The notes beneath the pieces are model-generated. The model did no database searches and was not told the origin of the DNA. It saw only the letters and a list, made by a program, of their open reading frames with translations. A program made the translations under genes and the position numbers. Of a stretch of 47,945 nt of DNA, positions 11,831 through 32,665 are shown piece by piece. Location of the stretch: the IMG/VR virus record IMGVR_UViG_3300015370_000021, positions 1 to 47,945 of that record, one strand, 5' to 3'. Source of the stretch: a virus. Lineage: Duplodnaviria; Caudoviricetes. Position 1 is the first letter of the stretch. Each line of letters starts with the position of its first letter.

Positions 11831-11836
11831 GGGACT

Positions 11837-12052: not shown

Positions 12053-12073
12053 CCCATACTACTGGAGCCTACC

Positions 12074-12685: not shown

Positions 12686-12686
12686 T

Positions 12687-12971: not shown

Positions 12972-13282
12972 GCGCAAACTGCTTCTTTGACGAGGATGAA
13001 TGCCTGACCTCCGGCGCCTGTCTGGAGTGCGAAAGGTTCCCTGGGACCGAGGAGGCCACGGCCAAGGTGGCCCAGAAGACTGATCCCCGGGAGCCGCTGG
13101 TCAAGGCCAGAGACATAACCCAGCTCGACCCGGGGCAGTATGTGGCCCGGGTGGTCCTGCAATGGGACGAGGCCATCTACGGGATGGGTCCCTCACCCGA
13201 GGTGGCCCTCGCCATGGCGGACTACAATTTCGGAGAGGCGTACAACTTCGCGGTGCGCTTCCACGAGTTCATGACCAAATAG
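12968..13282 (+). CDS. Hypothetical protein
   Basis: GAGGTG SD; ATGA overlap with HU. Confidence 0.7.
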   Translation: MSANCFFDEDECLTSGACLECERFPGTEEATAKVAQKTDPREPLVKARDITQLDPGQYVARVVLQWDEAIYGMGPSPEVALAMADYNFGEAYNFAVRFHEFMTK

Positions 13283-13287
13283 CAGCT

Positions 13288-13313
13288 GGAGCCCTCCGGG
13301 GCTCCTTCTTTTT
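13288..13313 (+). terminator. Rho-independent terminator
   Basis: GGAGCCC-loop-GGGCTCC followed by TTCTTTTT. Confidence 0.8.
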
Positions 13314-13358
13314 GTCGATGCGGCGAGATCGTCGCCATATCCACAGGAGGAATTTATC

Positions 13359-13541
13359 ATGGGAACAAAAGAAGCCACAAACATTCTGCTGCAAGAGGCT
13401 ATTGGCCTTCTTCGGGAGTCTCTAGACCACATAACGGAAAAGCCCTGGGACGATGACACCCGACTCCATGAACGCATATCTGTGTTCTTGGGCTTACCAG
13501 TTGCGTATCCGAATTGGGGAAAAGAACAGGGGGACGAATAG
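13359..13541 (+). CDS. Hypothetical protein
   Basis: AGGAGG SD; 60 aa. Confidence 0.7.
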   Translation: MGTKEATNILLQEAIGLLRESLDHITEKPWDDDTRLHERISVFLGLPVAYPNWGKEQGDE

Positions 13542-13543
13542 CC

Positions 13544-15655: not shown

Positions 15656-15846
15656 GTGATCTCAAATGTCAATTCTGCGAAAAGGTTGGACCCGACGTGG
15701 TCAACTACCACCAGCGCACACAGTACGTCGAAGAGGAAATGAACTGGGTGAACGCCTGCCCGGAGTGCAAACTCATGAATGATGAATATTGGGATGGAAT
15801 GTGGGCCGATTTGTATGGAGATATCCACAGCGGACTGGGGGTTTAG
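15652..15846 (+). CDS. Small zinc-finger protein
   Basis: CQFC...CPEC; ATGA overlap. Confidence 0.7.
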   Translation: MSDLKCQFCEKVGPDVVNYHQRTQYVEEEMNWVNACPECKLMNDEYWDGMWADLYGDIHSGLGV

Positions 15847-15847
15847 T

Positions 15848-16138
15848 ATGACACAAGAAACCATTTTCGCATGCGATGCACTGGGAGACCTGTACCGGTA
15901 TAATGAGCAGCTCCTCTGGGCGAACAAGGAACTGCTGGCGCAGTGTGACTTGTTGGAAGCGGAACTTGCCACGCTGGTGGATGCGGCGAGGCCGGTGGTC
16001 AAAGCATGGAAAAATAAGCGCGCCATGCTCGTGCGGCACGGCGAGATGGAACTGAATGGAGAATGCGACGACGTGTGTATCTGCGCTTCGTCAATGCAAC
16101 TTGACGCGCTGGCCGCGCTGGTCGGGGAGGAGAAATGA
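15848..16138 (+). CDS. Hypothetical protein
   Basis: Likely start MTQETIF within ORF 15779..16138. Confidence 0.65.
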   Translation: MTQETIFACDALGDLYRYNEQLLWANKELLAQCDLLEAELATLVDAARPVVKAWKNKRAMLVRHGEMELNGECDDVCICASSMQLDALAALVGEEK

Positions 16139-16655
16139 AAATAAAATTTGACCGCCAAGAGTATCTGGCTCTCGGAGAAATATTTGAGGTTGGGCAACTC
16201 GACGATGTGACATTAGAACTGTCTGAGTTTTCGGATGACATCGAAGACATGGCATATGAACTCGCATACACGAGGTATGAGTTGGCGAAGGCCGAGGCAC
16301 GTCACAACGCGCTGGTGGAGGCGGTTACGAGACTGCAAAAATTAGACAAGGATAGACCACTCCATCCAGTTACGGATGGACGGCTTATAGACGCCCGCGC
16401 CGAGGTGGACCGGCCGATTGAAAGGGGGAGAAGGGGAAGCAGGATGGCAGTTGATATACCAAAAGACATTCTCGCGTATCTCGAAGGCAAAGCTGCGCCG
16501 GTTGAGTGTAAAAAAGTCCGTGCCCTCCGTGCCCGCGTGGCGAGGCTAGAAGATGCACTAAAAGCAATACTCGGTTGGAGGGAACTGAGGGGCAAAATTA
16601 TGTTTCCCATTGAAAGAGTCGAAGACATTGCGCGTACCGCGCTGGTCGGGGAGGA
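16113..16655 (+). repeat. 19-bp direct repeat CCGCGCTGGTCGGGGAGGA flanking one gene
   Basis: Copies at 16113-16131 and 16637-16655, each containing the SD of the next gene. Confidence 0.8.
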
Positions 16656-16665
16656 AGGGAAATGA
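16135..16665 (+). CDS. Hypothetical coiled-coil protein
   Basis: GGAGG SD; ATGA coupling at both ends. Confidence 0.75.
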   Translation: MKIKFDRQEYLALGEIFEVGQLDDVTLELSEFSDDIEDMAYELAYTRYELAKAEARHNALVEAVTRLQKLDKDRPLHPVTDGRLIDARAEVDRPIERGRRGSRMAVDIPKDILAYLEGKAAPVECKKVRALRARVARLEDALKAILGWRELRGKIMFPIERVEDIARTALVGEEGK

Positions 16666-16835
16666 CACGCCAAGAACTAATCAACACCCTGCGACAAGGA
16701 GCCCCGATCAGCGCCAAGTTGGTGCAGAAGATCATCATCCACCTGGAGATGGCCGGGCACATGGAACAGAACCTCAAATACTACCAGGCCGAGGTCCAGC
16801 GCCTCGAAGATGTCCTGGCCGCGAAGGAGGGGTGA
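16662..16835 (+). CDS. Hypothetical protein (57 aa)
   Basis: Hand translation MTRQELINTLRQGAPISAKL...; coupled start and stop. Confidence 0.7.
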   Translation: MTRQELINTLRQGAPISAKLVQKIIIHLEMAGHMEQNLKYYQAEVQRLEDVLAAKEG

Positions 16836-17089
16836 TGGAGAACCCAAAGTCGATGGTATATAGAGACGAGAAGGCGGACAGATATGTTCATGTACTCTGC
16901 GCTGCCTGCCCTCCCCCTGACTTACAGGCTTTAATGAATCCACCCTCGGAGGGTACGATACCCCGCTTTTATTCACTGAAACACGCGGCGGATGCGGGGT
17001 GGGCAGCGACCAAGGATATAATGTTTTGTGACCCAAAATACGAGTTTGTCTTCCTCTGCCCAGAATGCGCGAAGGAGTTTCTCAAATGA
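16835..17089 (+). CDS. Hypothetical zinc-binding protein
   Basis: AGGAGG SD, MENPKS start; CAAC...CPEC. Confidence 0.7.
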   Translation: MENPKSMVYRDEKADRYVHVLCAACPPPDLQALMNPPSEGTIPRFYSLKHAADAGWAATKDIMFCDPKYEFVFLCPECAKEFLK

Positions 17090-17574
17090 TAATAAACATC
17101 ACCAAATTGACCGGCGTGGATCTCCTGCGCAAGGCTTGCTCCTTTACGACACATGGGCAGATTGACTCTGTGGTGACGCTCGACAAGATCTACCGCTGCG
17201 AGCACTCACCCATGCGAACCCAGATCTTTTGGATCGAGATGCGGGGCATCCCCTCCTTCGTATCAACCCACTTGGTCAGACACAAGATAGGAGTTGAAAG
17301 TTTTGTCCAAACCATGCGCGACGACCGGGGCGCGAACGAGGTCGCCAACCGACTGACAGAAGTCAACCACGCCATGCTGATCAACGCGCAGGCCGTCATC
17401 AGCATGGCCAGAAAGCGGCTCTGTTTCAAAGCACATAAGGAAACTCGCCTCCTGATGGAGGCCATCAAGGAGATCATGGAGCGAGTAGATATGGATCTCG
17501 CCCTAGCCTTGGTTCCAGAGTGTGAATATCGCGGCGGTGTTTGTCATGAACTGAAATCCTGCGGGAGGTACTGA
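17086..17574 (+). CDS. ThyX-like (FAD-dependent thymidylate synthase family), short divergent form
   Basis: EHSPMR, VSTHLVRH, NAQA...MARKRLC...A.KETR motifs. Confidence 0.75.
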   Translation: MIINITKLTGVDLLRKACSFTTHGQIDSVVTLDKIYRCEHSPMRTQIFWIEMRGIPSFVSTHLVRHKIGVESFVQTMRDDRGANEVANRLTEVNHAMLINAQAVISMARKRLCFKAHKETRLLMEAIKEIMERVDMDLALALVPECEYRGGVCHELKSCGRY

Positions 17575-18002
17575 TGCCTCCCATCTGTATCATCTGCGGG
17601 CTCCCGATTGAAGGCCGGCAGTCACATGCAAAATACCACGGGGGCGCTTGCCAGCGCGAGGTCTGGCGCCGGGAGTCCGAGAGGAAGCGAAAGCTGAAGG
17701 GAAAGCCCCCGTGGAAAAAGAAGAGGCCATGCTCAGAGTGCGGCAAGGTGTTCATGCCAAAATCGCCCAGGCAGGGAACGTGTGGGGAAGAGGTGTGCAA
17801 GTACGCGAGAAAGAAGCGCCTGGAAAAGCTCCGCGCTGCGGGTGTCTACCAGAAAAACGAGGCCGTGAATGCTTTTGGCGAGGCCCTGATACCAGATCCC
17901 TGGGAGCCGCATCTCGAAGGCAATGTTTTGTGGCCCGGTCTGGACATGCTGCCGCCCGAGTGCCGGTCGTGGTATCAGGCTGAGATGATGCCTTTAATGT
18001 AA
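17574..18002 (+). CDS. Basic double zinc-finger protein
   Basis: CIICG...H...C and CSECGK.F.P....Q..C...C. Confidence 0.75.
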   Translation: MPPICIICGLPIEGRQSHAKYHGGACQREVWRRESERKRKLKGKPPWKKKRPCSECGKVFMPKSPRQGTCGEEVCKYARKKRLEKLRAAGVYQKNEAVNAFGEALIPDPWEPHLEGNVLWPGLDMLPPECRSWYQAEMMPLM

Positions 18003-18011
18003 GGAGGACAT

Positions 18012-18218
18012 ATGGTAGACGTACACTGCCCGAACTGCGAGCACGTTTGGGAAGATGTGGACCTGTTTGATGAGACGGATATAGAGACGGAGACTGACAA
18101 GTTCCGAGACAGGCTTGTCATCAAAGAGGATCTCTTGGCCAGGATGCGCGAAGAGCTGAAGGGCATTGTAGATGAGTGGGACCAAGACCCTTTTCACGCC
18201 TTGGTCATCAGGGTCTAG
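18012..18218 (+). CDS. Hypothetical protein
   Basis: AAGGAGG SD; CPNC. Confidence 0.75.
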   Translation: MVDVHCPNCEHVWEDVDLFDETDIETETDKFRDRLVIKEDLLARMREELKGIVDEWDQDPFHALVIRV

Positions 18219-18265
18219 GATAGGCCGGACATCCAGCGCATCCGCAGACTGGTGGAGGAATAGAG

Positions 18266-18300
18266 AAAAGCCCCGGGGGAAACCTCGGGGCTTTTTTTTT
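18266..18300. terminator. Bidirectional intrinsic terminator at the convergence of the two arms
   Basis: AAAAGCCCCGGGG-GAAA-CCTCGGGGCTTTTTTTTT. Confidence 0.9.
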
Positions 18301-18374
18301 GCGGTGGTGTCGGGCGGGTTGTGGAGCAGGTTGTCACCTCGCACCAGAGAATAGACTTGGCGAGGGTAGCTGTC

Positions 18375-18572
18375 TCACAGAAAACCAGTAAATAGCCAAC
18401 GATTTTGAGTAAATGAACGGGCCACGAGTCGCCCCGCAACCCGCCTTTCCCAATCACCTACAGCCTCTGTGTGGTCGATACGTATATCACTGACGAGCAA
18501 GTCTGATAATTTTGTGAGAAGTTCCTCTATGCGGTCGAACCACTTTCCTTCAGTGCATCCGTGCTCTACCAT
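18375..18572 (-). CDS. Possible small hypothetical protein or gene remnant
   Basis: 65-aa ORF with AAGGA upstream in AT-rich DNA downstream of the tailspike. Confidence 0.35.
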   Translation of the reverse strand: MVEHGCTEGKWFDRIEELLTKLSDLLVSDIRIDHTEAVGDWERRVAGRLVARSFTQNRWLFTGFL

Positions 18573-18614
18573 TTTTTTAATCCTTAGTGCTATTATGAAT
18601 AATTGGTAGATGCT

Positions 18615-21113
18615 TTATTCGTTCGCAGAGTAGGCAAGGCGCGGTTTTATCCGTGTCTTGTAAAGCCTGATCTGGTCGCCTGCTGCGGCTATGTTTGTTT
18701 TTAACTGCAACCGCATCGCCCCCGCCAACGCAAACAAATCCTTTGTTATAGTGATAGTTCCATCACTTCCAAGCCGCTCCACGGAATAGCTGACTCTTTT
18801 AGTTGTTGACTGATAATTATAAATGCATATCTTACCTTTGATTGTGTATGTGTTTGCTGCTGACGACGTAATAGTTGCAATTGTTTTTAACTCTGTTGCT
18901 TCAAAAAGCGTCACAGTTTTATTGCCGGCTGTCCCGATGAACTGCGCATCAACTTCAAACTCAAAAACGTCACCATGTGTCCAGCCCCAAGCATCCCACT
19001 GCGGAAGAAGCGCGTCAATCAGCGTTGTATCTCCTGTTGCCAGCACTAAGTTTTGATAGTCCTTCTCTACTGGCAACGTGACTGAATTGACCGCGTCTTC
19101 CTCAAACCGGGATATGTTTCTTACATTGTACTGCCACGGCTGTGCGTGTGTAGCCGGATCAACACTGTGCGCGATCAGTACCCCCTTGAGCTTGCAATCC
19201 GTAATGGAGAGATCAACAACTCCGTATGAAGAATATGGGGACGCACACCCCCAGAAAAGTGCGCCATTCGCCACAACATTTTTTATTACAGCGTGTGTGA
19301 ATCCCTGTAGGGTGCTTACATAAATCGCGGCAGCAGTTGGTGGCAGCATAGCTGTAACCCCATCCACGATAAACGACACCCCATTTATGGCTGCTTGTGT
19401 TCTAAATATATATGCGCAAGACGGGCATTTTATAGTGAGGTCTTTGAAAATATGGCTTTTGATCTCGTATCCACCCCCACCCATCGTAGCGAAGCTGCTG
19501 CAGCCAGCTATGTCCATATGCACATTCTTGAAAATATAGTTGTCTCCCGCAGTCCCGGAGACCCCGACAACGTAAACGTCTGTATTAGTAAGGCCGGGAG
19601 CTATGAGCGTTACCCCATCGAAATCGATTCTCTGCGCGTATTCGCCAGCTTCAAGCCACGCCATATTTGAGGTTGCAATCTCCGACGAATCGCACCGCGT
19701 GTTCTTGTAGCTTGACGCATACGATCCAGTTTTAATTTCGTACAGCCTGAACGTGCCTGTCGCTACATCCATGTTCTTGCATACAATGTTATCCCATGTC
19801 GTGTAGCAGTCTGCGTTCGCGCTGTGTACATGACAGGCTCCATTTATTGTGATGTCATATACCTTGCACCGGTAAAGCCCACTCGTACTTAAGAACTGTG
19901 CTTGTATGCCTGCGGGTGCGGTTGACACATCAATGTACAGATCGTGGAATGACGAGTTGGCGCACCAATAGTCTGGCCCATATCCTGCGGGCAATGCTCC
20001 TGTGAAATCGTTCTGCTTGGCGATCCGCATACCCGTCATGCTATCAAAAATGGGAGACTCCAAGGTAAGCACGCCAGTTGCAGTATTTACTGACAATACC
20101 TTGTTGAGGAGGCTGAACCGGGGCTGCCAATCACTATCAGTGGCCAGCCCCTCAGTTGCAGACGCAATCAGAACTAACTCACCAACGCCGAAAGACTCTG
20201 CATCCGCAACCGTGGGTAGTGTGACCGTTCTCCCTGGGCTGATATTGTTCAATGCCTTCCAGTTACGGAGGTAATAAGTTGCGCGATGCACCCCACTGAC
20301 ATAAAAAATATGCGCCGTATTTTCTGCGTTTTCGATCAGAAAAAGCTGTGACATAACACCCGCACCAAAATAGTCCACGTCGGAGTATGGGCGCAGGTTG
20401 GTACACCCATAGCGACCGGGAGGAAAATAGAGGCCAAGTTTATTTGCCGAGCAGTACGCAGAGGCGGAATTGATTGCTGTAGTGTCATTCGTCACGCCGT
20501 CCCCAACCGCCCCAAAGTCCTTGACGCTCACAATGTCGCGGCTCTTGTCCTGCACCGTCCTCGCTACAGCTACGGTGCCAGATTGCAAGAACCCAACGAG
20601 CGAAGACCCCTCGGGGCCCAATAGCGGGCCGACAAGATTGGCGGAAGCCTCGGCAACCAAGGCGGCTGACACTGCTGCGTCCCTCGCCCCAAAAACCTGA
20701 TTGACCACATTGGCAGGGTCCTCCCCACTGGCTACCCCGACCCGCACCGTGCGACTGATCTCCTCGAGGAGCTGCTGGCGCTCTGCGGTCGCGATGTCCA
20801 GCGCGGTCTCGATGACCTCTGGGTCAAACCGCGTACCGGACACGAGGTCCACGTCCTGCAGGAAGTCCAGGAACCTGCGGAGGGTGATCTTCCACCCGAG
20901 GGGCAGGGGGTCGCCAACGGTCGGATAGGTCACTGTGCCCCCACTCCCCGCCAGCTCCACGGTCCAGTCACCGACCACCGTGTTGGCCCCGGTGGGGCTC
21001 GTTATGGACACCTCGAGATCCCCTGCCTTCCAGACCTTGAAGGCAAAGGGGAATCCGGTCTGGACCCCGTCGCCGTTTAGGGTCGCTTTGGAAACACTGC
21101 TTGAAATGGTCAT
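18615..21113 (-). CDS. Tail fibre/tailspike with pectate-lyase-like beta-helix
   Basis: T7 gp17-like N-terminus (GDGVQTGFPFAF); SVKDFGAVGDGVTNDTTAIN...LYFPPGRY motif. Confidence 0.9.
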   Translation of the reverse strand: MTISSSVSKATLNGDGVQTGFPFAFKVWKAGDLEVSITSPTGANTVVGDWTVELAGSGGTVTYPTVGDPLPLGWKITLRRFLDFLQDVDLVSGTRFDPEVIETALDIATAERQQLLEEISRTVRVGVASGEDPANVVNQVFGARDAAVSAALVAEASANLVGPLLGPEGSSLVGFLQSGTVAVARTVQDKSRDIVSVKDFGAVGDGVTNDTTAINSASAYCSANKLGLYFPPGRYGCTNLRPYSDVDYFGAGVMSQLFLIENAENTAHIFYVSGVHRATYYLRNWKALNNISPGRTVTLPTVADAESFGVGELVLIASATEGLATDSDWQPRFSLLNKVLSVNTATGVLTLESPIFDSMTGMRIAKQNDFTGALPAGYGPDYWCANSSFHDLYIDVSTAPAGIQAQFLSTSGLYRCKVYDITINGACHVHSANADCYTTWDNIVCKNMDVATGTFRLYEIKTGSYASSYKNTRCDSSEIATSNMAWLEAGEYAQRIDFDGVTLIAPGLTNTDVYVVGVSGTAGDNYIFKNVHMDIAGCSSFATMGGGGYEIKSHIFKDLTIKCPSCAYIFRTQAAINGVSFIVDGVTAMLPPTAAAIYVSTLQGFTHAVIKNVVANGALFWGCASPYSSYGVVDLSITDCKLKGVLIAHSVDPATHAQPWQYNVRNISRFEEDAVNSVTLPVEKDYQNLVLATGDTTLIDALLPQWDAWGWTHGDVFEFEVDAQFIGTAGNKTVTLFEATELKTIATITSSAANTYTIKGKICIYNYQSTTKRVSYSVERLGSDGTITITKDLFALAGAMRLQLKTNIAAAGDQIRLYKTRIKPRLAYSANE

Positions 21114-21116
21114 CTA

Positions 21117-24100
21117 TTACCTCCGTGATTTGGGCTTGACAAAGAAGAGATCCCGGACCTCAAATTCCGGGTCCTCCCCGGTCATGTAGTCCCAGATGTT
21201 GCCTAGTGTAATGACCGGCTGTTTGAGGGGCAGCTGGAATATATAGCCGACCGCTTCGACGGTAGGCCGCACAGCCCGCTCCGGATCTTCCTCTTCCACG
21301 GCCTTGTAAACCTGTCGGCCCCATTTGACCAGAGCGCCGGGCGCTGATGCCGCGGGGGTCATCTGGTAATCGAACCCGCTTTCAATGGCACTGGCGATGT
21401 CCTTGACACCCACGATGGTCAGGAAGGGGTAGGTCGCGATCAGCCCCGCGCCCCAGCTCCACCACTCCTCATCATCGTCAGGCCCGCGCCCGGCGATCAG
21501 CTCGGCCATGATGGCCGGGAGGAACCAGAGCGCCATGGCGGAACCAGCGGCGGTCGGGATGTCGGACAGGCTCTTGGTCATGCTGACCCGGCGGTACGTC
21601 AGGCTGTAGAGCGCGCTGAAGTAGGAATAAAACATGGTGGCCAGACGCTGGAATTCACCTCCACGCTGGACCCGGGCCAAATCCTTGGTCGCACCGGAGC
21701 CCTGTGAGATCCTGACCACAGAGTCCGCGTAGGCCACGGCCTTGGCCTCGTCTCCCAGGTTCTCGGACAGGCCCTTCTGGTAGGCGCCCCACCACGTCGG
21801 CATATCGACTCCGAGCTGCATGTACCCGATGCCCTTGAAAGAGAATTCCTGCACGCCGCGCATGAAGCTGTCGGCAGTTGTCAGGCCTTTCATGGCATCG
21901 CGGACTTCGCGGTCGAAGCTCTTGATGCGGTTGTTCATGAACGTCGATTTGGTCGTGATCTCATCATAGACCTTGTGGATACGCAGGGAATTTCCGTACA
22001 CATGCTTGAGCCCCACGGTGGACCATTTGGGGCCGATGACGTCCAGCGTCTGGAAGATGCCTAAAGGCTGCGTGATCATGGTCGTGAACTTGAGCCCCAT
22101 CTGCATGATGGTCGTGCCCTTGCGCGCCCAGCGGGCTGCGCGGTGGAGCTGGTTCATGGGCTCCTGCCTCTCCTGGGCCACGTCCTGCAGCCAGGGCATG
22201 AACTCCCTGTAGGCCTCGGGGGACAGCGCGTCCTCGACCATCTTCCGGACCTTGGGCCGCTTCATGATCTTGGCCACTTCCACCACGGCCTTCCTGTGCG
22301 TCAGGTCGTGGACCGTGTTGTAGAGGTGGTCAGTGATGACGCCAAGGTCCAGGGACAAGGCCTGTTCTGCGCCTGTGGCAGCGCGCTCTTTCAGATGGTT
22401 GTGCTGGGTCATGGCGGCGCCGTAGTTGCGCCCGCCAAAGAGCTGCTTGTCCAGATCCTTCTGCTCCCTGCTGAACGCCGTGTAGTTCAGATCCGTGTCA
22501 TAGTCCGCCGGATAATACCCACCCTGGAGCACCCCGTGCATGGTTGTAAGAGGCGTCGGCATGATCCGCTCGGGCTCACGACCGGTCAGGTACTTCTGCA
22601 GGGCGAAGCTCTCGGGCCGGAAGGAATCAAAGTAGTCCCAAATGTCCTGCACGAATTTCCAGTCCTTGGCGGTGAGCAGCTCCTCTGTCTGGGTCATGCG
22701 CTGGAAGAGGGCGTCCAGGTCCCAATCCGGAAATCCCTGCTTCAAGCGCAGGATGTTGCCCTCGTTGCCCATGTTGAGCGCGATGGCCAGGATCTCGGAT
22801 TTGCGCAGGGAATCATTGATCTCGGGGATGAAAACCCGGTCGCCCATGCCTTTCTTCACGGGCGCGAACAACTGCTGCAGTTTGGCGTGAACGTCTTTTA
22901 GCCTTTCACTGCGCGCATTTTCCGCGTCGGCTATGGGCTTGAAGAACATGTTCCACCAGTGCCCCTGGCTCCAGTTGTCCAGATCGAGCAGCATCGCTTC
23001 CATCTTCGCGTGGAAGGCGTGCGTTCCTGAGATCATCTTGCGCAGCTTGCTCTTGCGCTTGGACCTCTGGGTGCTGGTCATCTTCCGCCCAGTGGTGGAC
23101 TGCTCGAGCAGGGCCTCCGCTGCCTCCAGTGCCAGGCGCTGGCCATTCACGAGGACGGTGCGCTCGTTGCGGTCCACGGTCCTGATCGTGTTGACAGCCT
23201 GGCGCACCGCATCGAACTGCTCGACGGTCAGATCCTGCAGCGGGACGTACCCGGCGTTCTGTAGGACGAAGGGGTCGAAGTACACGCCGAAATCATTCTC
23301 ACGCTCGGCCGCCCAGTCCGATAAAGTCGGACGCTCTTCACCCTTGGCCGCGAAGCTCTGCGTGTACGCGGCCCAGGCTTTGTCCTTCTTCTGCTTGTTG
23401 TAGGGCATGAGCCCGTACTGGATGCCCAGGCCCTGCAGGAGGTCCTTGGCGTCGGGGAGCATGCTCTTCTGCTTGGCGCCCTTCTTGATGGCCTTCTCCA
23501 GTTTCTGGATCTGACCCCGGAGCTTCATCGACTCCATGAATAGCGCATGGTTCAGCAGCTCCTCGCGTTTGGCCTTGAGCGCGTCTGCGGTCCTGCCGGC
23601 CTTCTTGGCATCGCGGGCACGAATTGCCGCGTTGCGCTCGGCGCGTGCGAACTTTTGGTATTTCGTGGCGCTGCTCAGAGGCATCGACCGTATCGTCTGC
23701 CGGGCCACTTCCCGGGCAGCGGCCGCGTCCAGAGCCCGGGCCCGGGCGCCCTGACGTTTGGACGACTGCTCGGCCAGGATGGTGAACTCGGCTACCAGCA
23801 GGGCCAGGCGGTCCTCATTGTGGTAGGCCTCGTCTGCCGCGACGACGGAGTCAGCATCAAGCATGCCGCGCAGGATGGTCTGCCTCTCTGCCTCGACGCG
23901 CTGGTCCACAGCATCCTTGAGGGCCTGCTGTTTGCTCGGCGCAGCGGCCATGTCGAGAAGCATCTCGCGCGCGCTGTCGTATCCGTTCTGTGCCGCGACC
24001 ACGTTGGGGTCGAGGTCACCGCCGACCTTCACCGCTTTCCACTTCTTGCTGATGGCCTTGCGGGTCTCCTCCCCTACCAGGTAATCGATCTCGGACAGCT

Positions 24101-27100
24101 CAAAGCCACCATTCCGGGCCGCCTCGATGGCGGTGTAGACCCGGCGGGCTTCCACCTCTGCTCGCAGTTCCTCGGCCAGGGCTTTGCGGCCGCCTTGCGA
24201 TTTGATGTAGGCCTCGGTCAGCCTGCGCAGCCTGGAGTCGAAAGAGGCTTCCTGCGCCTTGTCGCGCAGGCGCTTTAAGTCCGCGCGGTCTTTCTCGCTC
24301 ATCTGGTCGGCCTGGTCGAAGAACGGGCGCTGCGCGGCATAGAAGGCCTCGACCTCCTGCATCTCCTGCTCGGTCGCGAAGAGCCTGTCGAAGATGGGTT
24401 TGAGATCCGGATTGAACTCTGTGCCGCTGGCCGCAAAGATGTTTTCGACTTCCCGGTAGATGCCTTTTAGCCATTCGGCGTATTTGGCGAACAGACCGCG
24501 CAGGCCAAGGGATGGGGCCTCGCCCTTGGCGAAGTAGGCTTCCAGGTTTCGCGACCACTCCTCGTGGGCCTCGCGGCTGATCGGGCCATCGCTGGGCAGG
24601 CGCAGGGCTGCCTTGGTTTGTGACCACAGGTCGACCATGGCCTGGGGCGCGTCGGCCTTTAAAGCCATGTCGCGGATCATCTCGAGGTAGAGGTGCCCCG
24701 TCTCGTGCAGGAAGCTCGACTGATTGGCTTTCTCGAAAAGCTCGATCAAAGGCTTGCCGGACGCGGTCTTGAAGGTGAAAGCCGCCTGGGGTTCGCCTTG
24801 CTGCTGCAGGAATGCCTTGCTACCATAAGAATCAACATCCTTACCTTGCATCCTCGCAGAGTCGAGAGAACCAGCACCGTTTCGAAACAACGCATCCAAC
24901 GGGCGTGCTTTTATAGCGTTGGCCATCGCGGCAACATTTCGCCAAGCAGACAGCGCGGCCTCGTTTGGTAGAATGCCGACTATGCCCGTGGCATTGGTGC
25001 GGTGGAAGCTCTTCAGCACCTCGCCAAGTCGGTCGCCGCGCAGGCGAGACATCTCCGCGGGGTCCAACGGGAGAAAGCCAATAGGCACGTTGTTGTTTGA
25101 AAGAAGGATGATACCCGACTCGGCTCCACCTGTTATTATGCTGATGTTGCTTTTGATGTCTTCTGGGCTGCTGACTGGGCCAAGCCCCCGCACCTTGTCG
25201 GCCTTAACAAACAGCCGCTGAACAACAGGGACTTTTTTCTGTTTGCCTGGGGGTGGGTAGGGCTGGTTGTTGCCATACTCATCGCCGTAGCCGCTAGGGG
25301 TGACCGCGATAATGCCACCATAGGACAAACCAGAACCTTCGTTGATGGCCCTGGTATTTTCGGAAAGACCACGATCTGCGGAGGACAGCACAGCAGTTTC
25401 AGCAGGGTGATTGTGTACCAGATAAAAGCTCTTGGCGCCCTCTACGTCCTGGATGGCGCCGAGCAGGGCTCTGTTGTCAACTTGTGTGCTGTCTATGTTC
25501 CCTATGGAATGGGATAAGATGGCGAGCGGTTTCCCGTTCTTGTCGAGGACCAAAGCAGAAAGTTGTTCCTGTGGAGCGTCGGAAAGAAAAGACATTGCGA
25601 CAGCCGCTTGGCGCGGACTGACTACTGCGGCTGGGACGCTTCTTTTTTCTGTGGACCTGATTTCGACAAGTCGGGCACCGGGTAAGGGGCGCATTCCTCG
25701 TTCTTCGGGGTAAACACCTTCTCCTCCCCGGGCGGATACAGAATCTTCTCCTCGGTCTGCTTTTTCATAAACCACCTCTTTTTCCTTGACGATACCACCG
25801 GGGCCGGGTTTGTCAATACCCAGCTCGTTCTGGTTCAGCGTCTGGCTCTGCACCAGATCCACTGGCACGGCAGCGTGGTCGCCCAGGAGCACGACCACAC
25901 CCTTGGGTGCCTGGGCGCGGGGCACGAAGATGCCGTCGAAGCCAGCGTCGATAATGGAGGATTCAAGATTGTTGAAGGACACATTCGGGTCGGCCATCTT
26001 GTCCGCATACGCGGCGGCGGCGAGCCCAAGCGGGTCCTCGTCGACGTTGTACACGTTGTTCAGATTGACGGCGTGAATGTTCGAGCCGACGCCCGGCTCT
26101 GGGCGGATGCCTTCGCCGGTGTCAACATAGAAATGGATGCGCTGGGAGAGACGGGGGTCGGAAGAAAGGGCGAGGCGCCGGGCCTCAGACCCTTTTATTC
26201 CTGTTCCGTAGAAGTGTCCGGAGAGGGACTCGCGGGGTTCTCTGGAGTAGTGGATTCCAAGGACGGAGCTTCCTCCGGCCTTTTGTTCCCCGTAGCTTGC
26301 TCGAACCGGTCCCACATCGCTGACTCGTAGGACTTGTGGGTCTCTGCCTCGAAGGGAGGCAGGGAGCTGCTGGAAGGTTCTGCTGTCGGTGTCGAGGGCT
26401 TCTCGGAGGAGCCTGGTCGCTTCGCTCCGAAGATTATCCGCCCGCCCTTCAGCGGATGGTCGTCCGGAAACGGCTTGTGTCCTAGATACGCCATAATCGT
26501 ACTCCTTTTTGTCTATGAAAGCAGAGAAGGCATCGCCAGAAGTGATGTCGAATTCTCCGCCCAGGTGTTCATTTATTAACCTGGCGAGAACCCCCGTGTC
26601 AAGGTTCGAGAAGTTCAAAACGACCATCTGGCCGTTGGCCGTGGTGTGCCCGCCGACCAATTTCTCGCCGTCCTGCTCCAGCTCCCAGAGCTTGTCATAG
26701 AGGGCTTCCACTTCCTTCGCGCCAAAGCCCTCGGGAAGATTTATGGTCACCGCGCCCACAGGCTGCGTGCCCACGACCTGCGTGTCGGACACGACCATCA
26801 TGCTGTCCTGGGACAGGGCGAAACCCAGCGTCTTGGCTGCCGTCACCAGCAGCTCGGGGCGATCCAGGAGAAGAGCCATGGGGGGATTTGTCGCGCCCAT
26901 GTACCCGCCGAGCTGCATATCAAAGGCGCCGGATACGCCAAGCTCCTTGAGGACCTGGGGCACGATGGCGGCCGCCACCTTCTGGCTGATATCCTGCTTC
27001 ATGTCCTGCGGCAGTGCGTCCCATTCGGAGGTGAGCTGCGCGTCATTCGGGTCTGGAGCCACCTCGAAGAAGACACGCGTCTGTGTGGAAGGCGTGGCGC

Positions 27101-30100
27101 CAGCTGGGCCCCTCGCGTCGATGGCTGCTTGCGCGGGGCCGGAATAGGTGCGCCGGACTTCCTCGGTAAAGGGCACCGTGGACCAGCTCGGGGGTGTAAC
27201 CCCTTCCGCCAATTCAAAGATCTCTTTCTGCGCCTGGTCCTGCTCGATCTCGCCGCTCTTGTAGCGCAGCCAGATGTCATTGGCTGCAGTCTTCATGCGG
27301 CTCTTTTTGGCGGCCTCGAAGAGCCCGCGCACTGCTTCCCAGGTAATGGACTGCATCTCTCTGGGCAGGAGACCTCTTTCCTTGGCCGCGCGCTTGTAGG
27401 CCTCGAGGTAGAGGGGATACGTCCCGTTCATGCCCGTGACATTGGAAGACGCGGACCCCGTGCCGCCGAAGGCCTGCAGGACTTCTGTGTCCGCTGCAGC
27501 CAGAGGGCGCAGCAGCGCGGCCGCCACGGCGTGTGTGTCGCTGGTCGTGAAGCCCAGAGGGCTGGCCGGGTCAAAAAGGTTGTTGTAAAAATTACGGACC
27601 TTGTGCTCTTTGCCAATCTGGTAATAGACATTTTCGGCCCGACCATCGAGCAGGATGGAAATACCCTTGGCGATGGTCGAATAGGACTTCCAGGCGTTGG
27701 TCGCATCGTTGCCAGAATTTGTCTGGGCCAGACCCGCCGCGCCGCCCTCGGGGGTCAGGACACGGTAGGCCCGGCTGTTGTGTGTCTGGTCGTAAACGCG
27801 AACCCATCTTGCGGCCACGTCGGGGCGGTCCAGCAGCTCTTCCAGCGTCTTGCCTTTGGCCTCGGCCATGATGGCATCGCCTTCTGCGATCCGGTCAGCC
27901 TCGGCCGTCATGGCGTCGTCCCAGCGAAAGTCGCGCATGCCGAAGACGATGTCGGCGATGCGCTCGGCCTGGCTCATGTTGGGGAACCATCCGTTCTGTG
28001 GGGAGAGGACAGCAATGGTCGCCGCGCCCTGCATCTCGCTGATACCATATCTTTCTGCCCACGCCTCGATGGTCTTCCTGCCGCCATCGTACCAGCGCTT
28101 GGCCCTGGCGCGCATATCGGGGTCCATGGCGTCATGCAGAAAAAGAAGGTTACTCACAACGTGGTTGACGAAGGCCTCGGCCTGCGCGGCGGGGGTCTTT
28201 GATCCCTTGCCCGTCAGCTTGCGCATGTTGGGCAGGGCCAAGAGGGCCTTCATGTTCTTCTCAAGCGTCTTGACGTCCGACAAGGCCACGTTGAAGTCGA
28301 GCGTCAGGACCTCGTTCAACGGATCCTCTGTAGACTTCACTGCCGAGGGCAGGCGCGTCGAGAGTGACTGATTCAAAATCCGCGCATCGCCCGGGTCAAA
28401 CGTACCGCGGTTGTTGACTGACTTGATCTGGGTGGGGTCTGTTACGAACCAAGACATGCCCGACTGATCATTCGGCTCATACACCCGCACCGAATCGTAG
28501 CCCCGCTCTTTCATGCGGCGCACAACTTCCGGGTTGTCCAGATGATCCCATTCCATCTGCCCGTCCGCAAAAACCTTGTCTATCCAGTCCCCGTTTTCAT
28601 CGAATTCAGTGCGGGATAATCCACCATTGAAATCGATGTACCGGTTCCCGTCCGCTTCGTACGCGGCGGGCTCCAATATATAGAACAGATCATCCCAAGC
28701 CTTCGCCACGGCGTCCTTTTCTGATTGAGGGCTGTTCGAGGACACCGGCATGTCGTTGGGGTTCACGAGAGGGTTCTTTGCTGACAGGTAGAATTCCGCC
28801 ACGTTGCCACCATAGGACTCCGCGTCCTCTTGGCTCAGGGAGAAAAATACCCCTTGGGATTCAACGTCCTGCTCGGAAAAAGTGGTGTACCTCTTGGTCT
28901 TCCTTCCTGTCTCGAAAGCGAAGTCCGAGCCCATTCGGGCCTCGGTCCCGTGGTAAACAACCAACGGTTTCCCGCTATCATCCACCACCTTGGACTCGCC
29001 AAACCACCTCTTGAAATACGGCGACTCCGTGCCCATCTCGGCCCACAGTCTCCCAGCCTCTTCGATCTCTGCCTGATTCTCGACACCAGCATATGCCGCG
29101 CCTTGCTGCAGGGTCTGCTCGTCAACAGCAGGCTGCCCGCCTCGCATGACCTGCGGCCCGTAGACCTGCCACAGCTCGGCTGGCGTGACATTGTTCATCC
29201 TGGCCAGCACGCCAAACGTCGCAGCGGTCATCCGCGCATCAGCCCGCGCGGCGTCGTTGACCAGGCCTACCTTCTGCCTCGAGGCCAGCAGCTCCTCCTG
29301 GATGGCCTTGACCTGCGTCTCGTATTCGCTGGTGGTCACGCGATCCTCTTTGAGCATCTGCACGAGGCGTGCCGTCTCGGCCTGGAAATCCTTCTGGGCC
29401 TGCACGGCCTCATTGCGGGTCAGCCCATCCACGGTCAGGCGCCGGTCGTTTGCAAAGCGCGCTGCGAACTCGGGGTTTGAGGCCACGACCTTGGCGTAGG
29501 TGCCGAGCGGGATGACCAGATCCTGCCCAGTGGTCAGCGCGGCGTCGAACTGATCCATGCTCACGCCGAGCTGGTTCAGCGTCTCGCTCATGCCCTGCAG
29601 GTCCGATTCAAAATTGGATGCTACGGCAGATGCAGGGACATAGATATTCTCGATCTGCCCGCCCTGCTGGATCGTCTCGACCACTTCCTGCAGGATGAGT
29701 GGGTCAAGCTGACCCAGCTTGGACTGCACGATGTTCTGGGTCAGGGTGTCGAGGACCTGCTGCTCCTGATCGGCTCGCTGGGTGATGATCTGCTCACGGG
29801 CCGTGTGCGCGATGTTCACGCCACCACCAAGGAGGAAAGAGGCCGGGATGACGTCAATGTTCTCAAAGCTCTTCCAGACGTTCTCGACCGTGGTGTCATA
29901 ATCGTCGCCCCTGGCCAGGGAGGAGAAGAAGGCGCCGAAGGGCTCTTCCGCATACTCGGTCAGGGCTTCTGTCGTACCAGCCACAAAGAACTTCCCAGCG
30001 CGCTGCAGGAAGGTCGAAGCGAGCTTCTTGGACAGGATGGCATCCAGGCCCAGCTTGTTCAGCACCGCGACCACGGGGACCATGGCCTGGGAGGCCAGAG

Positions 30101-30935
30101 CGGCCCGGTCAGGGTCCACGCCCTCCTCGATAAGCTCCTTGTACTGGCTCGCGCCCTCCATCATGCCACCCACAAAGCCGCCCAGCAGGTTGCTGCCAGA
30201 CAGCGCCGCAGAGGCGATGACAGGCGCCAGGGAGGCGGCCGCATCGCCCGCGTTCTGGAGGAGCCATTGCGGATCTACCATATACTGCGGGTTATCGATG
30301 AGCCGGCCGCGCAGTTCCTCGGGCAGGCCCAGATATTCGTCCTTGTAGTCCTGGATCTCTTTGCTGCTCGACAGCGCGAAATCCCGGATGTTTCCGAACA
30401 AGCCCCCATACGTCAAACCTGGGATGGCTTCCAGTCCCTTGGACGCGCTGTCCAGCGTACCTGCTACCAGACCCAGAGTGTTGTAGGCAAATTCACCGAT
30501 GGTCGGACCGAAGCGCAGCCCCACATCCAACGCGGTGCCCGCCGTCGCGATGCCCTTCTGGATGGCGCGCTCGATCTCGGCCAGGGTGTCCACGTCATCA
30601 GCCACGGCGGCCATCTTGTGGGGGCTCTGGTGGATGTAGGCGCGAAGGCCCGGAGCGCCAACGAGGCCCGCATTCATCTTCTCGACGTCCGCTTTGAGCA
30701 GGACCTCATCCCGGTTCCGGCTGACCAGTTCCGGGTCGAGCCCGGCGTCACGACCGAGCTGGATGTCCTGCACGGCGGTGTAGGGGTTCAGCAGCTTGGC
30801 CTGCTTGGCCCGGGCGTCCGGGCGCAGAGGTTCCATGCCGGGCGGGTAGAGGTCAGGTAGATCCGGGGTAAAGACATTCTTGGGCTTGGGGTCCACGATG
30901 CCTGTCGTGGGGAAAAGATCTGGAAGCTGCGACAT
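21117..30935 (-). CDS. Giant polyvalent internal virion (ejection) protein, 3272 aa
   Basis: Position after the internal virion genes; ART-like YHGT domain, HhH-like domain, JAB/RadC HNHP...SxxD, zincin HETGH. Confidence 0.9.
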   Translation of the reverse strand: MSQLPDLFPTTGIVDPKPKNVFTPDLPDLYPPGMEPLRPDARAKQAKLLNPYTAVQDIQLGRDAGLDPELVSRNRDEVLLKADVEKMNAGLVGAPGLRAYIHQSPHKMAAVADDVDTLAEIERAIQKGIATAGTALDVGLRFGPTIGEFAYNTLGLVAGTLDSASKGLEAIPGLTYGGLFGNIRDFALSSSKEIQDYKDEYLGLPEELRGRLIDNPQYMVDPQWLLQNAGDAAASLAPVIASAALSGSNLLGGFVGGMMEGASQYKELIEEGVDPDRAALASQAMVPVVAVLNKLGLDAILSKKLASTFLQRAGKFFVAGTTEALTEYAEEPFGAFFSSLARGDDYDTTVENVWKSFENIDVIPASFLLGGGVNIAHTAREQIITQRADQEQQVLDTLTQNIVQSKLGQLDPLILQEVVETIQQGGQIENIYVPASAVASNFESDLQGMSETLNQLGVSMDQFDAALTTGQDLVIPLGTYAKVVASNPEFAARFANDRRLTVDGLTRNEAVQAQKDFQAETARLVQMLKEDRVTTSEYETQVKAIQEELLASRQKVGLVNDAARADARMTAATFGVLARMNNVTPAELWQVYGPQVMRGGQPAVDEQTLQQGAAYAGVENQAEIEEAGRLWAEMGTESPYFKRWFGESKVVDDSGKPLVVYHGTEARMGSDFAFETGRKTKRYTTFSEQDVESQGVFFSLSQEDAESYGGNVAEFYLSAKNPLVNPNDMPVSSNSPQSEKDAVAKAWDDLFYILEPAAYEADGNRYIDFNGGLSRTEFDENGDWIDKVFADGQMEWDHLDNPEVVRRMKERGYDSVRVYEPNDQSGMSWFVTDPTQIKSVNNRGTFDPGDARILNQSLSTRLPSAVKSTEDPLNEVLTLDFNVALSDVKTLEKNMKALLALPNMRKLTGKGSKTPAAQAEAFVNHVVSNLLFLHDAMDPDMRARAKRWYDGGRKTIEAWAERYGISEMQGAATIAVLSPQNGWFPNMSQAERIADIVFGMRDFRWDDAMTAEADRIAEGDAIMAEAKGKTLEELLDRPDVAARWVRVYDQTHNSRAYRVLTPEGGAAGLAQTNSGNDATNAWKSYSTIAKGISILLDGRAENVYYQIGKEHKVRNFYNNLFDPASPLGFTTSDTHAVAAALLRPLAAADTEVLQAFGGTGSASSNVTGMNGTYPLYLEAYKRAAKERGLLPREMQSITWEAVRGLFEAAKKSRMKTAANDIWLRYKSGEIEQDQAQKEIFELAEGVTPPSWSTVPFTEEVRRTYSGPAQAAIDARGPAGATPSTQTRVFFEVAPDPNDAQLTSEWDALPQDMKQDISQKVAAAIVPQVLKELGVSGAFDMQLGGYMGATNPPMALLLDRPELLVTAAKTLGFALSQDSMMVVSDTQVVGTQPVGAVTINLPEGFGAKEVEALYDKLWELEQDGEKLVGGHTTANGQMVVLNFSNLDTGVLARLINEHLGGEFDITSGDAFSAFIDKKEYDYGVSRTQAVSGRPSAEGRADNLRSEATRLLREALDTDSRTFQQLPASLRGRDPQVLRVSDVGPVRASYGEQKAGGSSVLGIHYSREPRESLSGHFYGTGIKGSEARRLALSSDPRLSQRIHFYVDTGEGIRPEPGVGSNIHAVNLNNVYNVDEDPLGLAAAAYADKMADPNVSFNNLESSIIDAGFDGIFVPRAQAPKGVVVLLGDHAAVPVDLVQSQTLNQNELGIDKPGPGGIVKEKEVVYEKADRGEDSVSARGGEGVYPEERGMRPLPGARLVEIRSTEKRSVPAAVVSPRQAAVAMSFLSDAPQEQLSALVLDKNGKPLAILSHSIGNIDSTQVDNRALLGAIQDVEGAKSFYLVHNHPAETAVLSSADRGLSENTRAINEGSGLSYGGIIAVTPSGYGDEYGNNQPYPPPGKQKKVPVVQRLFVKADKVRGLGPVSSPEDIKSNISIITGGAESGIILLSNNNVPIGFLPLDPAEMSRLRGDRLGEVLKSFHRTNATGIVGILPNEAALSAWRNVAAMANAIKARPLDALFRNGAGSLDSARMQGKDVDSYGSKAFLQQQGEPQAAFTFKTASGKPLIELFEKANQSSFLHETGHLYLEMIRDMALKADAPQAMVDLWSQTKAALRLPSDGPISREAHEEWSRNLEAYFAKGEAPSLGLRGLFAKYAEWLKGIYREVENIFAASGTEFNPDLKPIFDRLFATEQEMQEVEAFYAAQRPFFDQADQMSEKDRADLKRLRDKAQEASFDSRLRRLTEAYIKSQGGRKALAEELRAEVEARRVYTAIEAARNGGFELSEIDYLVGEETRKAISKKWKAVKVGGDLDPNVVAAQNGYDSAREMLLDMAAAPSKQQALKDAVDQRVEAERQTILRGMLDADSVVAADEAYHNEDRLALLVAEFTILAEQSSKRQGARARALDAAAAREVARQTIRSMPLSSATKYQKFARAERNAAIRARDAKKAGRTADALKAKREELLNHALFMESMKLRGQIQKLEKAIKKGAKQKSMLPDAKDLLQGLGIQYGLMPYNKQKKDKAWAAYTQSFAAKGEERPTLSDWAAERENDFGVYFDPFVLQNAGYVPLQDLTVEQFDAVRQAVNTIRTVDRNERTVLVNGQRLALEAAEALLEQSTTGRKMTSTQRSKRKSKLRKMISGTHAFHAKMEAMLLDLDNWSQGHWWNMFFKPIADAENARSERLKDVHAKLQQLFAPVKKGMGDRVFIPEINDSLRKSEILAIALNMGNEGNILRLKQGFPDWDLDALFQRMTQTEELLTAKDWKFVQDIWDYFDSFRPESFALQKYLTGREPERIMPTPLTTMHGVLQGGYYPADYDTDLNYTAFSREQKDLDKQLFGGRNYGAAMTQHNHLKERAATGAEQALSLDLGVITDHLYNTVHDLTHRKAVVEVAKIMKRPKVRKMVEDALSPEAYREFMPWLQDVAQERQEPMNQLHRAARWARKGTTIMQMGLKFTTMITQPLGIFQTLDVIGPKWSTVGLKHVYGNSLRIHKVYDEITTKSTFMNNRIKSFDREVRDAMKGLTTADSFMRGVQEFSFKGIGYMQLGVDMPTWWGAYQKGLSENLGDEAKAVAYADSVVRISQGSGATKDLARVQRGGEFQRLATMFYSYFSALYSLTYRRVSMTKSLSDIPTAAGSAMALWFLPAIMAELIAGRGPDDDEEWWSWGAGLIATYPFLTIVGVKDIASAIESGFDYQMTPAASAPGALVKWGRQVYKAVEEEDPERAVRPTVEAVGYIFQLPLKQPVITLGNIWDYMTGEDPEFEVRDLFFVKPKSRR
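25622..25768 (-). CDS. Nested out-of-frame small protein (48 aa) inside the giant gene
   Basis: GAGGTG SD before the ATG; promoter-like element directly upstream; MKKQTEEKILYPPGEEKVFTPKNEECAPYPVPDL... Confidence 0.6.
   Translation of the reverse strand: MKKQTEEKILYPPGEEKVFTPKNEECAPYPVPDLSKSGPQKKEASQPQ
25789..25816 (-). promoter_or_regulatory. Embedded sigma70-like promoter within the giant gene
   Basis: TTGACA-16 nt-TATCGT with extended -10 TGn. Confidence 0.6.
26195..26494 (-). CDS. Nested out-of-frame small protein (99 aa) inside the giant gene
   Basis: AAGGAG-8 nt-ATG; MAYLGHKPFPDDHPLKGGRIIFG...; TTGACA at 26602-26597 upstream. Confidence 0.6.
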   Translation of the reverse strand: MAYLGHKPFPDDHPLKGGRIIFGAKRPGSSEKPSTPTAEPSSSSLPPFEAETHKSYESAMWDRFEQATGNKRPEEAPSLESTTPENPASPSPDTSTEQE

Positions 30936-30943
30936 CCTCGCTC

Positions 30944-32665
30944 CTATGGTTTGGGCAGTTTATCGATACCCTGTTCGAGCAGTCTTCTGTGGTATGCACG
31001 GATGGCCAGGTTGGTGTCACCTTCAAATTGCCCCGCCCACGCCTCGCGCAGGGCCGGGTTGGCGTCGAACTTGGCGCGGATGGCCGTAGCGGTGTCTGTA
31101 TCCGTATCCGGCAGCCAGTCAGGATCTGCGAGGCTCTCACCAAAAGACACGTCCTTCCCATACCCGAACCAGCTCCCGCCCTTCTTCTCGCCGTCGAGGA
31201 CCCAGATGTCCGCGAGTTTCTGCAAGTAGGTCGGGTCATCCGCCCGGTTGGTATCGGCCACTTTGCTTTCCGCCCACCGCTTGAACTCGAAAAGTTCGCG
31301 CTTCTCGCTGTCTTTAAGCTTGATGGGCGTCTTGCCGTCGTTGACCACGCCTTTGGCGGAAAGCCATACGTTCTTGAGATCCGCCTCCGTGGTCTTCTGC
31401 TTGCCGCCGAGGCTGCTCTCCAGGCGCTTCAGATCCTGGGCGCCGACCTTGGCAGCGGCGGGATCTTCGCGCAGGGCTCCAGGCGTTGTGACCTCCGCAT
31501 ACTGGATCTTCTCGGCCAGGGTCTCATATGCCTCCGGATTGGTCCGGAACCCGATGCCCGCGAAGGAGGAGTATTCCTTGTAGCGCCTGACGGCAGCATT
31601 CTTGACCGGGCCTTCCGGCAAACCCTGCACATATTTGTACTGGGCCATGAGGTCGCCCTCCAGGCTGTCCACCTGATCCATGGCGCCGTAGATGGCTTCC
31701 TGCCGGGCGGCGGTCTGCTCGGCCTTCCGGCTGGCATACAGCGCGTTGAATGTGGACTTGGCCACGCGGCGCACATCGAGGTCCTCGACGTTATCCATCA
31801 AATATTTCTGAGTGCCCTGCTTGTCGTAACCCTGGGCGAGCAGCATCTCGGCCAGGCTGTCGGCCTTGTCTGCCACCTCGGCCGGGCGCAGCGCGTCCAT
31901 GACCTTGGCCTTGTCCTCACCCGTCATGCGGTCGTCGCCCATGATCTCACGGGCCACCCCGTACTGGCCCTGCTTGACGTAGCGCAGCGCGACGTTCTTG
32001 ACCGTGTCCGACTTTCCAAGGCGGGTCAGCTCCTCGGTCTGCTCGGGGGAGAGGCCGCTGTACTGAGCGGCCAGGCGCAGGTTCTCTTCCATCCGGGCGA
32101 TGCCTGCGTTGACCTTGTCGGCGTCGGTGAAGTTAAGCAGCGCGTAGTCCGCTTCCTTCTTGGCCACAGACTGGTAGGTATTGATCAGGTCCTTGCGCCG
32201 CTCTGTCGATTCGTGCCGGGCCACGCTGACCAGGGACTCCCGCGAGACCGGCATGACCTTGAGCCCAAAGACTTGCTGCTGCGCCGGCGTCAGGCCCGCG
32301 GAGACTTCACGCTCCAGCTCCAGGAGCTTCTCCTTGGCTTCCTTGGTCAGACCCTGAGCAGATCCGCCGAGGCGGCCATAAGCTCCAGAGCCCGGGGAGC
32401 CATCTCCGACGAGGTAGTTGCTGACCCTGTTGTGGTAATCGCCATAAGCTTTGGTGACCGCCAGCTCGTCCTCTTCCTTCTTCATGCGGTCAGCAGCTGC
32501 CAGCATGTTCCGGCCGAGAGTGTTGATATCACTGCCGAGACCCTGCAGGGCTTTTGCATCCCCGCCGCCGAAGGCTTCGATAGGGGCCTGCAGGCTCTGC
32601 TTGGGCGCGCCCATGCTGACGGACTTCTGATCGAGTTTGCGCTCGTAAACTGGTATTCTAGACAT
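30944..32665 (-). CDS. Internal virion protein (helical)
   Basis: 573-aa helical protein between the core protein and the giant protein; MSRIPVYER start. Confidence 0.8.
   Translation of the reverse strand: MSRIPVYERKLDQKSVSMGAPKQSLQAPIEAFGGGDAKALQGLGSDINTLGRNMLAAADRMKKEEDELAVTKAYGDYHNRVSNYLVGDGSPGSGAYGRLGGSAQGLTKEAKEKLLELEREVSAGLTPAQQQVFGLKVMPVSRESLVSVARHESTERRKDLINTYQSVAKKEADYALLNFTDADKVNAGIARMEENLRLAAQYSGLSPEQTEELTRLGKSDTVKNVALRYVKQGQYGVAREIMGDDRMTGEDKAKVMDALRPAEVADKADSLAEMLLAQGYDKQGTQKYLMDNVEDLDVRRVAKSTFNALYASRKAEQTAARQEAIYGAMDQVDSLEGDLMAQYKYVQGLPEGPVKNAAVRRYKEYSSFAGIGFRTNPEAYETLAEKIQYAEVTTPGALREDPAAAKVGAQDLKRLESSLGGKQKTTEADLKNVWLSAKGVVNDGKTPIKLKDSEKRELFEFKRWAESKVADTNRADDPTYLQKLADIWVLDGEKKGGSWFGYGKDVSFGESLADPDWLPDTDTDTATAIRAKFDANPALREAWAGQFEGDTNLAIRAYHRRLLEQGIDKLPKP

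Follow-up and report, generated by a model that had tools for sequence, protein, structure and literature searches.

The window analysed here, a stretch of 47,945 nucleotides (47.9 kb), corresponds to a phage genome or near-genome, with genes for a primase, a helicase, DNA polymerase A, terminase, portal, capsid and nozzle proteins and for proteins resembling T7 gp13 and gp14. No match to the integrase, repressor or RNA polymerase families was obtained among the window ORFs scanned (26 in one scan and 49 in another). Two long ORFs that overlap in different frames of the minus strand (4801-5880 and 4815-5723) both match DNA methyltransferase PHROGs, and we take them to resemble split two-subunit C5 methylases. 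The minus-strand gene at 21117..30935 encodes a protein of 3272 aa, which we assign to the phage polyvalent proteins in the sense of PMC5512222 because of its matches to LPD22, ART-PolyVal, DUF7178 and RadC; LPD and ART-PolyVal domains are thus combined with other, unrelated conflict domains in one large protein, as membership of this class entails. The gene occupies the position of an ejection protein gene, with the T7 gp13-like, gp14-like and nozzle genes as its upstream neighbours, and, judging from gene position, the giant protein may be packaged in the virion and injected.

Nested in this gene, in the +1 frame relative to the 3272-aa ORF (30935..21117), is a minus-strand ORF of 48 aa (25622..25768), hereafter ORF B, that opens with an ATG at 25768 and closes with a TAG ending at 25622. 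It is preceded by a -35 box, TTGACA (25811..25816), which reads I-D-K in the host frame and sits at the 5' border of the JAB module described below, and, after a spacer of 16 nt, by an extended -10 element, TG-n-TATCGT (25789..25797; TG at 25797-25796 and TATCGT at 25794-25789), which reads G-G-I-V in the host frame. These elements would place the transcription start site near 25782, upstream of a Shine-Dalgarno (SD)-like GAGGTG (25773..25778) with a duplex energy of -7.1. An earlier note had drawn the promoter, the extended TG, the GAGGTG, the ATG at 25768 and the 48-aa out-of-frame ORF on the minus strand exactly as they are found here. When 20500-31500 was scanned for sigma70 promoters, the ORF B promoter was the sole 10/12 match and hence the best in the giant gene. 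Scans of 1-19999 and 20500-47945 yielded two 10/12 sites, and the extended TG occurs only at the ORF B promoter; the other site, at 4574-4602 (+), runs in the antisense direction just past the primase start.

The likelihood of such an arrangement arising by chance was estimated from 1500 synonymous codon re-draws of the whole giant gene in which the host protein was held fixed. A complete unit, defined as a promoter of at least 10/12, an SD of -7 kcal or lower and an ORF of at least 40 aa, thresholds that were chosen with the real case known, appeared anywhere in the gene in five of the 1500 re-draws. Looser cut-offs gave a unit in 75/1500, and a promoter of at least 10/12 alone appeared in 190/1500. 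Beneath ORF B the third position of the host codon is A at 24/49 codons, compared with 6.5 +/- 2.2 (maximum 16) in the re-draws, and the only other A-rich position-3 peak of this kind in the giant gene lies beneath a sibling ORF that starts at 26494 (ORF A). ORF B is thus an alternative frame with a start, an SD and a stop beyond chance expectation, as a nested gene should be.

The module that follows ORF B, taken as host aa 1750-2042, begins with a RadC-like JAB domain (25284..25670, minus strand; host aa about 1756-1884; Pfam PF04002), whose metal motif E / HxH / S / D is intact (invariant E41, H92, H94, S102 and D105). A second domain (24858..25241, minus strand) lacks HxH and has no Pfam match, and the order of its helices and strands is similar to that of JAB; it comes after JAB in 96 of the 103 phage loci introduced below. 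AlphaFold2 returned a confident two-domain model of the module (mean pLDDT 90), for which the best Foldseek match is RadC (2qlc, E 4e-5), and from the model we infer that the second domain is an inactive JAB-like partner. Prediction of a complex between the peptide and this JAB tandem scored 0.39, compared with 0.26 for the control, a difference that was given no weight for or against binding. According to the earlier note, ORF B ends where the JAB domain begins; the two do adjoin, but the last third of ORF B overlaps the first predicted beta-strand of JAB (host aa 1756-1768, pLDDT about 92). We know of no toxicity for RadC. In PMC5512222 its activity, as a nuclease or nucleic-acid processor, is put forward only as a hypothesis.

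Homologous cassettes were collected from two viral scans with JAB alignments, using the best 80 of 165 and the best 80 of 156 matches. These supplied 117 distinct loci besides the window; one without HNHP was left out, 113 lie in long ORFs and 103 were retained after 70% clustering. At 74 of the 103 loci no stop interrupts the +1 frame in the interval -125..-85, counted in codons relative to HNHP; seven control windows gave 18-35 such loci, and the +2 frame 33. The motif GT[YFW]xP occurs in the +1 frame at 29/103 loci and at 0-1 in all other windows and frames, and in 29/29 cases a Tyr stands four residues past its P, although this position lay outside the search pattern. L005 and L074 are among the loci with a GTYSPPPPY version of the motif. 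Host residues opposite the motif vary (DVQP, DLFA, NMES, YLHS), the host frame at the invariant +1 Tyr reads V, A, L, I and others, and the motif Ser is encoded by AGY and also by TCN codons. At 65/103 loci a peptide that opens with an ATG and reaches 35 aa or more can be drawn (median 60 aa), and at least two Tyr per 50 aa are present in 78% of these 65 peptides, compared with 11% of 390 control translations. The corresponding family residues of ORF B are Tyr11, within Y-x4-E-K-V, and Tyr29. The related motif Y-x3,4-[ED][KRE][ILV] was devised after the peptides, including that of the window, had been inspected, and alignment A4 was pre-selected for motifs; an excess of +1 over +2 units (78 versus 3) was set aside because ATG is far commoner in the +1 frame throughout.

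Expression signals are less uniform than the reading frame. A full promoter stands upstream of 6/65 nested peptides (controls 0-3) and a -10-like hexamer precedes 18/65 nested ATGs (1-8 in ten control offsets), which indicates that the strong promoter is a feature of a lineage. The conservation in homologous cassettes that the earlier note had proposed to look for was therefore found for the open +1 frame, but for the full promoter at few loci. In a quick JAB tree of few columns and weak resolution, peptides are present in all main branches. The JAB motif is intact at 72/74 loci that pass the fixed-window test and at 28/29 that fail it, so that the presence of the peptide does not track the integrity of the motif; some failures are peptides shifted out of the fixed window (L046, L049, L068, L073 and L136). 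The linkage looked for in an antitoxin or immunity gene is accordingly present, at 74/103 loci across the tree with a single exception, L062. This locus has a second motif, GTYSPPPVY, in the +1 frame at about 3950-4070, without a clear ATG, before a non-JAB domain whose model has a pLDDT of 37.

The window peptide belongs to this family by several comparisons, although it has the two family tyrosines and not the GT[YFW]xP core. A profile of the 65 other peptides ranks it first among 924 window segments (E 0.0055; next 0.015), and a profile built without it scores it above 1006/1006 +1-frame decoys, at a modest 11.4 bits. In pairwise comparison it matches best the peptide of L143, the nearest JAB relative, with a score equalled by 4/300 shuffles, and across the Tyr11 block the identity to L143, which is also the nearest DNA homologue, is 7/15 in the +1 frame and 4/16 in the host frame. 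The JAB tree, again with few columns and weak resolution, groups the window with L143 (SH-aLRT 92) within 33 rows that contain no closed member. At 2190-2540 in L143, the 3' portion of the nested ORF together with the beginning of JAB is directly duplicated, immediately upstream of the complete copy. Cysteine-switch inhibitors of metalloenzymes have a conserved Cys in their inhibitory peptide, and the earlier note had envisaged the single Cys of the window peptide, Cys26, as a ligand of the JAB zinc; as a mechanism of the family this was discarded, since 38/65 peptides have no Cys, that of L143 is at a different position from the window's and the conserved residues are the two tyrosines.

No match to the window peptide was found in Pfam, PHROGs or the atlas, nor in protein databases by exact look-up or with the family profile at near and longer lengths, and these searches thus did not connect it with any known family of antitoxins or immunity proteins. 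Gene callers skip nested ORFs, and so absence from protein databases is to be expected. Proteins in which peptide and JAB are naturally fused in frame were not encountered either, which is weak evidence.

The same cassette occurs in two proteins, P0001 (92%) and P0002 (79%), which were compared at the protein level only, so that conservation of the promoter and SD in them denotes compatibility, and which are not independent of each other. Both retain [IF]D[RT]-x4-GI[VL] and EKEVVYE and thus permit the same -35 box, spacing, -10 element, SD and ATG: the host residue after D at the -35 box is K, R or T (window, P0001 and P0002), each compatible with a codon starting with A, G-I-[VL] follows at identical spacing, and EKEVVYE over the SD is invariant. 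A stop within the +1 frame is imposed by neither protein sequence. Under ORF B, all five host substitutions in P0001 are changes at codon position 1, four of them silent in the +1 frame, whereas downstream 4/13 are position-1 changes (single-base-reachable); for P0002 the counts are 8/14 under ORF B versus 3/11 downstream. DNA of a close cassette was found neither in viral contigs nor in GTDB genomes, metagenomes gave only the window's own record, and annotated phages offered no match covering JAB. L001/P0004 switches to another module directly after NELG and P0002 enters the cassette from another domain, which places the edge of the JAB module at the -35 box.

The earlier note read the host frame here as a linker, with the other frame as the constrained one. 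Selection on the +1 frame is indeed apparent at the amino acid level in the motif, the tyrosines and the substitutions, but the 3' third of the stretch encodes a folded strand, and a DLF-type motif, which we take to be clamp-binding-like, is present in the host frame of this stretch at 38/103 JAB loci, so that both frames are constrained; the window itself lacks it. An E-P-x-A-x-Y-like motif is found in host-frame codons -160..-90 at 12/103 JAB loci, and it and the DLF-type motif overlap the start of the nested ORF. Across the whole linker, host identity exceeds +1 identity in 21/22 disjoint pairs, in an alignment biased to the host frame, and this pair test accordingly favours the host frame. 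The excess of changes at position 3 is weaker in the linker than in JAB (0.36/0.32/0.51 versus 0.30/0.21/0.57). Overall, the motif, tyrosine, substitution and profile results bear out the earlier note to the extent that the frame is a coding one under selection and moves together with the JAB module.

ORF B is not the only nested unit in the giant gene. ORF A (26195..26494, minus strand; 99 aa), also in the +1 frame, has the SD AAGGAG and an upstream TTGACA at 26602 whose -10 element has decayed in the window. In L001 and in L003 / phage zth2-2 it is open with an SD, a promoter (TTGACA-16-TATAGT or GATAAT) and the same stop, which supports the earlier inclusion of this sibling in the pattern. 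When 48 further loci and two named records were reduced to 10 distinct contexts, a +1 ORF was found at the place of ORF A in nine of them, with loose thresholds and no control run. The N-terminus of ORF A varies along with the upstream module, and a weak terminator-like hairpin lies 8 nt past its stop (26187-26171, minus strand). The host domain between ORF A and ORF B (25854..26258, minus strand) has no Pfam match and is, we assume from motif resemblance, ART-like; it was rejected as the partner of ORF B because L001 has the domain without ORF B and the ORF B region of P0002 stands behind another domain.

Nested units also recur at other modules, in line with the suggestion that several cassettes carry them. 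Among 78 strong-SD +1 units, nine have a promoter, compared with a background of 1%, and six of the nine are JAB-linked. Unrelated nested units with promoters were found in L166/L004, L136, L155 and L156. In the first, a 70-aa +1 ORF with an SD that is unrelated to ORFs A and B (L004 about 2101-2310; L166 codons -325..-254) has, in L166, the promoter TTGACC-17-TATAGT, and the module downstream of it is presumably GNAT-like. The other three are promoter-SD-ORF units in the +1 frame at non-JAB modules (L136 codon +314, L155 codon -658 and L156 codon -267). A third type of nested peptide was observed at about codon -94 in L171, L192 and L205, its N-terminus being common to loci that share the upstream module. 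Nested ORFs were also seen in Limnohabitans phage DC33, at two other modules.

ORF B is likely a real, unannotated gene, since related hidden frames with shared motifs precede the same module in most of the related genes compared. The signals and the open frame are in place, residues of the +1 frame are under selection, and the linkage to JAB holds regardless of the upstream module. The comparative support for the gene is strong, and on this basis we consider it very probable that ORF B is expressed and functional; what it does we infer. The reading that we prefer, with a probability of roughly 45%, is that host RNA polymerase transcribes ORF B separately from the giant gene and that its product keeps the JAB tandem in check by binding to it, an inhibitory role that ranks ahead of a host-directed peptide, a positive partner, a non-functional frame and a launch pad for the module. 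The mRNA would be translated into a tyrosine/proline peptide, and, because no phage RNA polymerase gene was found among the ORFs scanned, the sigma70 promoter would be expected to fire early, soon after phage entry. By binding and inhibiting the JAB tandem, the peptide might end the action of the injected module once the first minutes have passed; alternatively, it might protect the cell during synthesis of the new giant protein that is to be packaged. Small unstructured partners encoded beside conflict enzymes are commonly antitoxins.

A peptide that has its own target in the host, as an anti-defence or takeover factor would, and is simply carried along by the JAB module is rather unlikely. 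Overlap would enforce co-inheritance whatever the function, promoters differ between loci, and the motif of L062 stands before a non-JAB domain; yet one motif family persists over the whole JAB tree and is found elsewhere only once in 103 loci, and other modules have unrelated peptides. We judge it unlikely, too, that the peptide binds the JAB module as an activator, adaptor, chaperone or packaging tag. The JAB linkage and motif results would fit equally, the conserved, pseudo-enzyme-like second domain suggests a regulated assembly, and in lambda the nested Rz1 serves Rz as a co-subunit and not as an inhibitor (PMC5295617). However, intact JABs occur without the peptide, and expression from a sigma70-like promoter of its own would be timed independently of the giant protein, as would be more fitting for a brake than for a subunit.

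That ORF B is non-functional in this phage, its frame held open by host-frame constraints or decaying as a relic and its promoter due to chance, seems quite improbable. The DLF-type motif, the higher host identity in aligned pairs, the frequency of promoters among the re-draws and the empty protein database searches could all be read in this way, but the invariant +1 Tyr opposite variable host residues, the A-rich third positions and the position-1 bias in P0001 argue against it. A launch pad that expresses the JAB module separately, by -1 frameshifting into the host frame or by re-initiation, has a precedent in the internal promoters of rhs (PMC7043789, in the part available), and an internal transcript would traverse JAB, this strand being free of terminator-like sites until 21260, but it is very improbable given that slippery heptamers in the nested frame are not conserved (15/103 versus 8-14 in four controls), a host ATG coincides with the nested stop in 1/65 only, in-frame ATGs with an SD are not elevated, P0001 and P0002 have Val or Leu in place of host Met1748, and re-initiation past the nested stop would lose the first strand of JAB.

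Our literature search, which covered mostly openly accessible papers, yielded no account of a module-linked family of nested peptides in polyvalent genes. In type II toxin-antitoxin and polymorphic toxin-immunity pairs, a small partner gene with a sigma70 promoter lies beside the conflict enzyme, whereas ORF B, encoding the putative partner, is nested within the ORF of the effector itself. Iyer et al. 2017 (PMC5512222) described polyvalent proteins with RadC/JAB domains, and the host gene resembles them in being giant and multi-domain, in combining LPD22, ART-PolyVal and RadC and in lying among virion genes. The available part of that paper describes no nested genes, the word 'overlap' occurring zero times in it, and presents RadC as specific to the polyvalent proteins of conjugative elements, whereas here RadC is found in more than 100 viral contigs.

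The individual ingredients, namely nested +1 genes (Rz1), promoters inside effector ORFs (rhs) and hidden out-of-frame phage genes, are already known separately. Lambda Rz1 is likewise a small gene lying wholly in the +1 frame of its partner, in a mutation-tolerant stretch, and the accessible text of PMC5295617 describes Rz and Rz1 as membrane spanin subunits of a late operon; ORF B, unlike Rz1, has its own promoter-like site, encodes a soluble peptide and is one of several nested genes tied to single modules. In the Rhs-CT/RhsI system a promoter is also hidden in the large ORF of a delivered effector, the internal start being in frame and making the toxin, with immunity encoded by a separate downstream gene (PMC7043789, as far as available); the ORF B product is instead out of frame and upstream. 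A module of the Rhs type was rejected for this locus because no in-frame internal start for the effector domain was found. The ShiLan HNH gene is similarly out of frame within an uninterrupted ORF, that of a phage methylase, where it corresponds to a loop in the host frame, and is a selfish homing endonuclease according to the part of PMC11855218 available, whereas ORF B encodes a 48-aa peptide without a nuclease motif.

Polyvalent proteins are a common kind of protein in which the G/R/E/A-rich 'linkers' pass for filler. Should peptides specific to individual modules be encoded there, annotation and protein databases would lack an entire class of phage genes. We tentatively propose, as a generalisation that we hold to be possible at somewhat less than even odds, that polyvalent genes carry a second gene layer in which each swappable effector module has its own overprinted +1 regulator and promoter, and that the Tyr/Pro peptides linked to JAB represent the first RadC inhibitors of natural origin. 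A cognate peptide would make the function of RadC/JAB, disputed for decades, testable, and would provide an off-switch for cloning, a structural ligand and a pointer to the active face. If true, this arrangement would explain how a multi-effector protein is produced without harm to the phage's own infection and why modules are exchangeable as units, and the giant gene would be a string of effector-inhibitor cassettes packed into one ORF.
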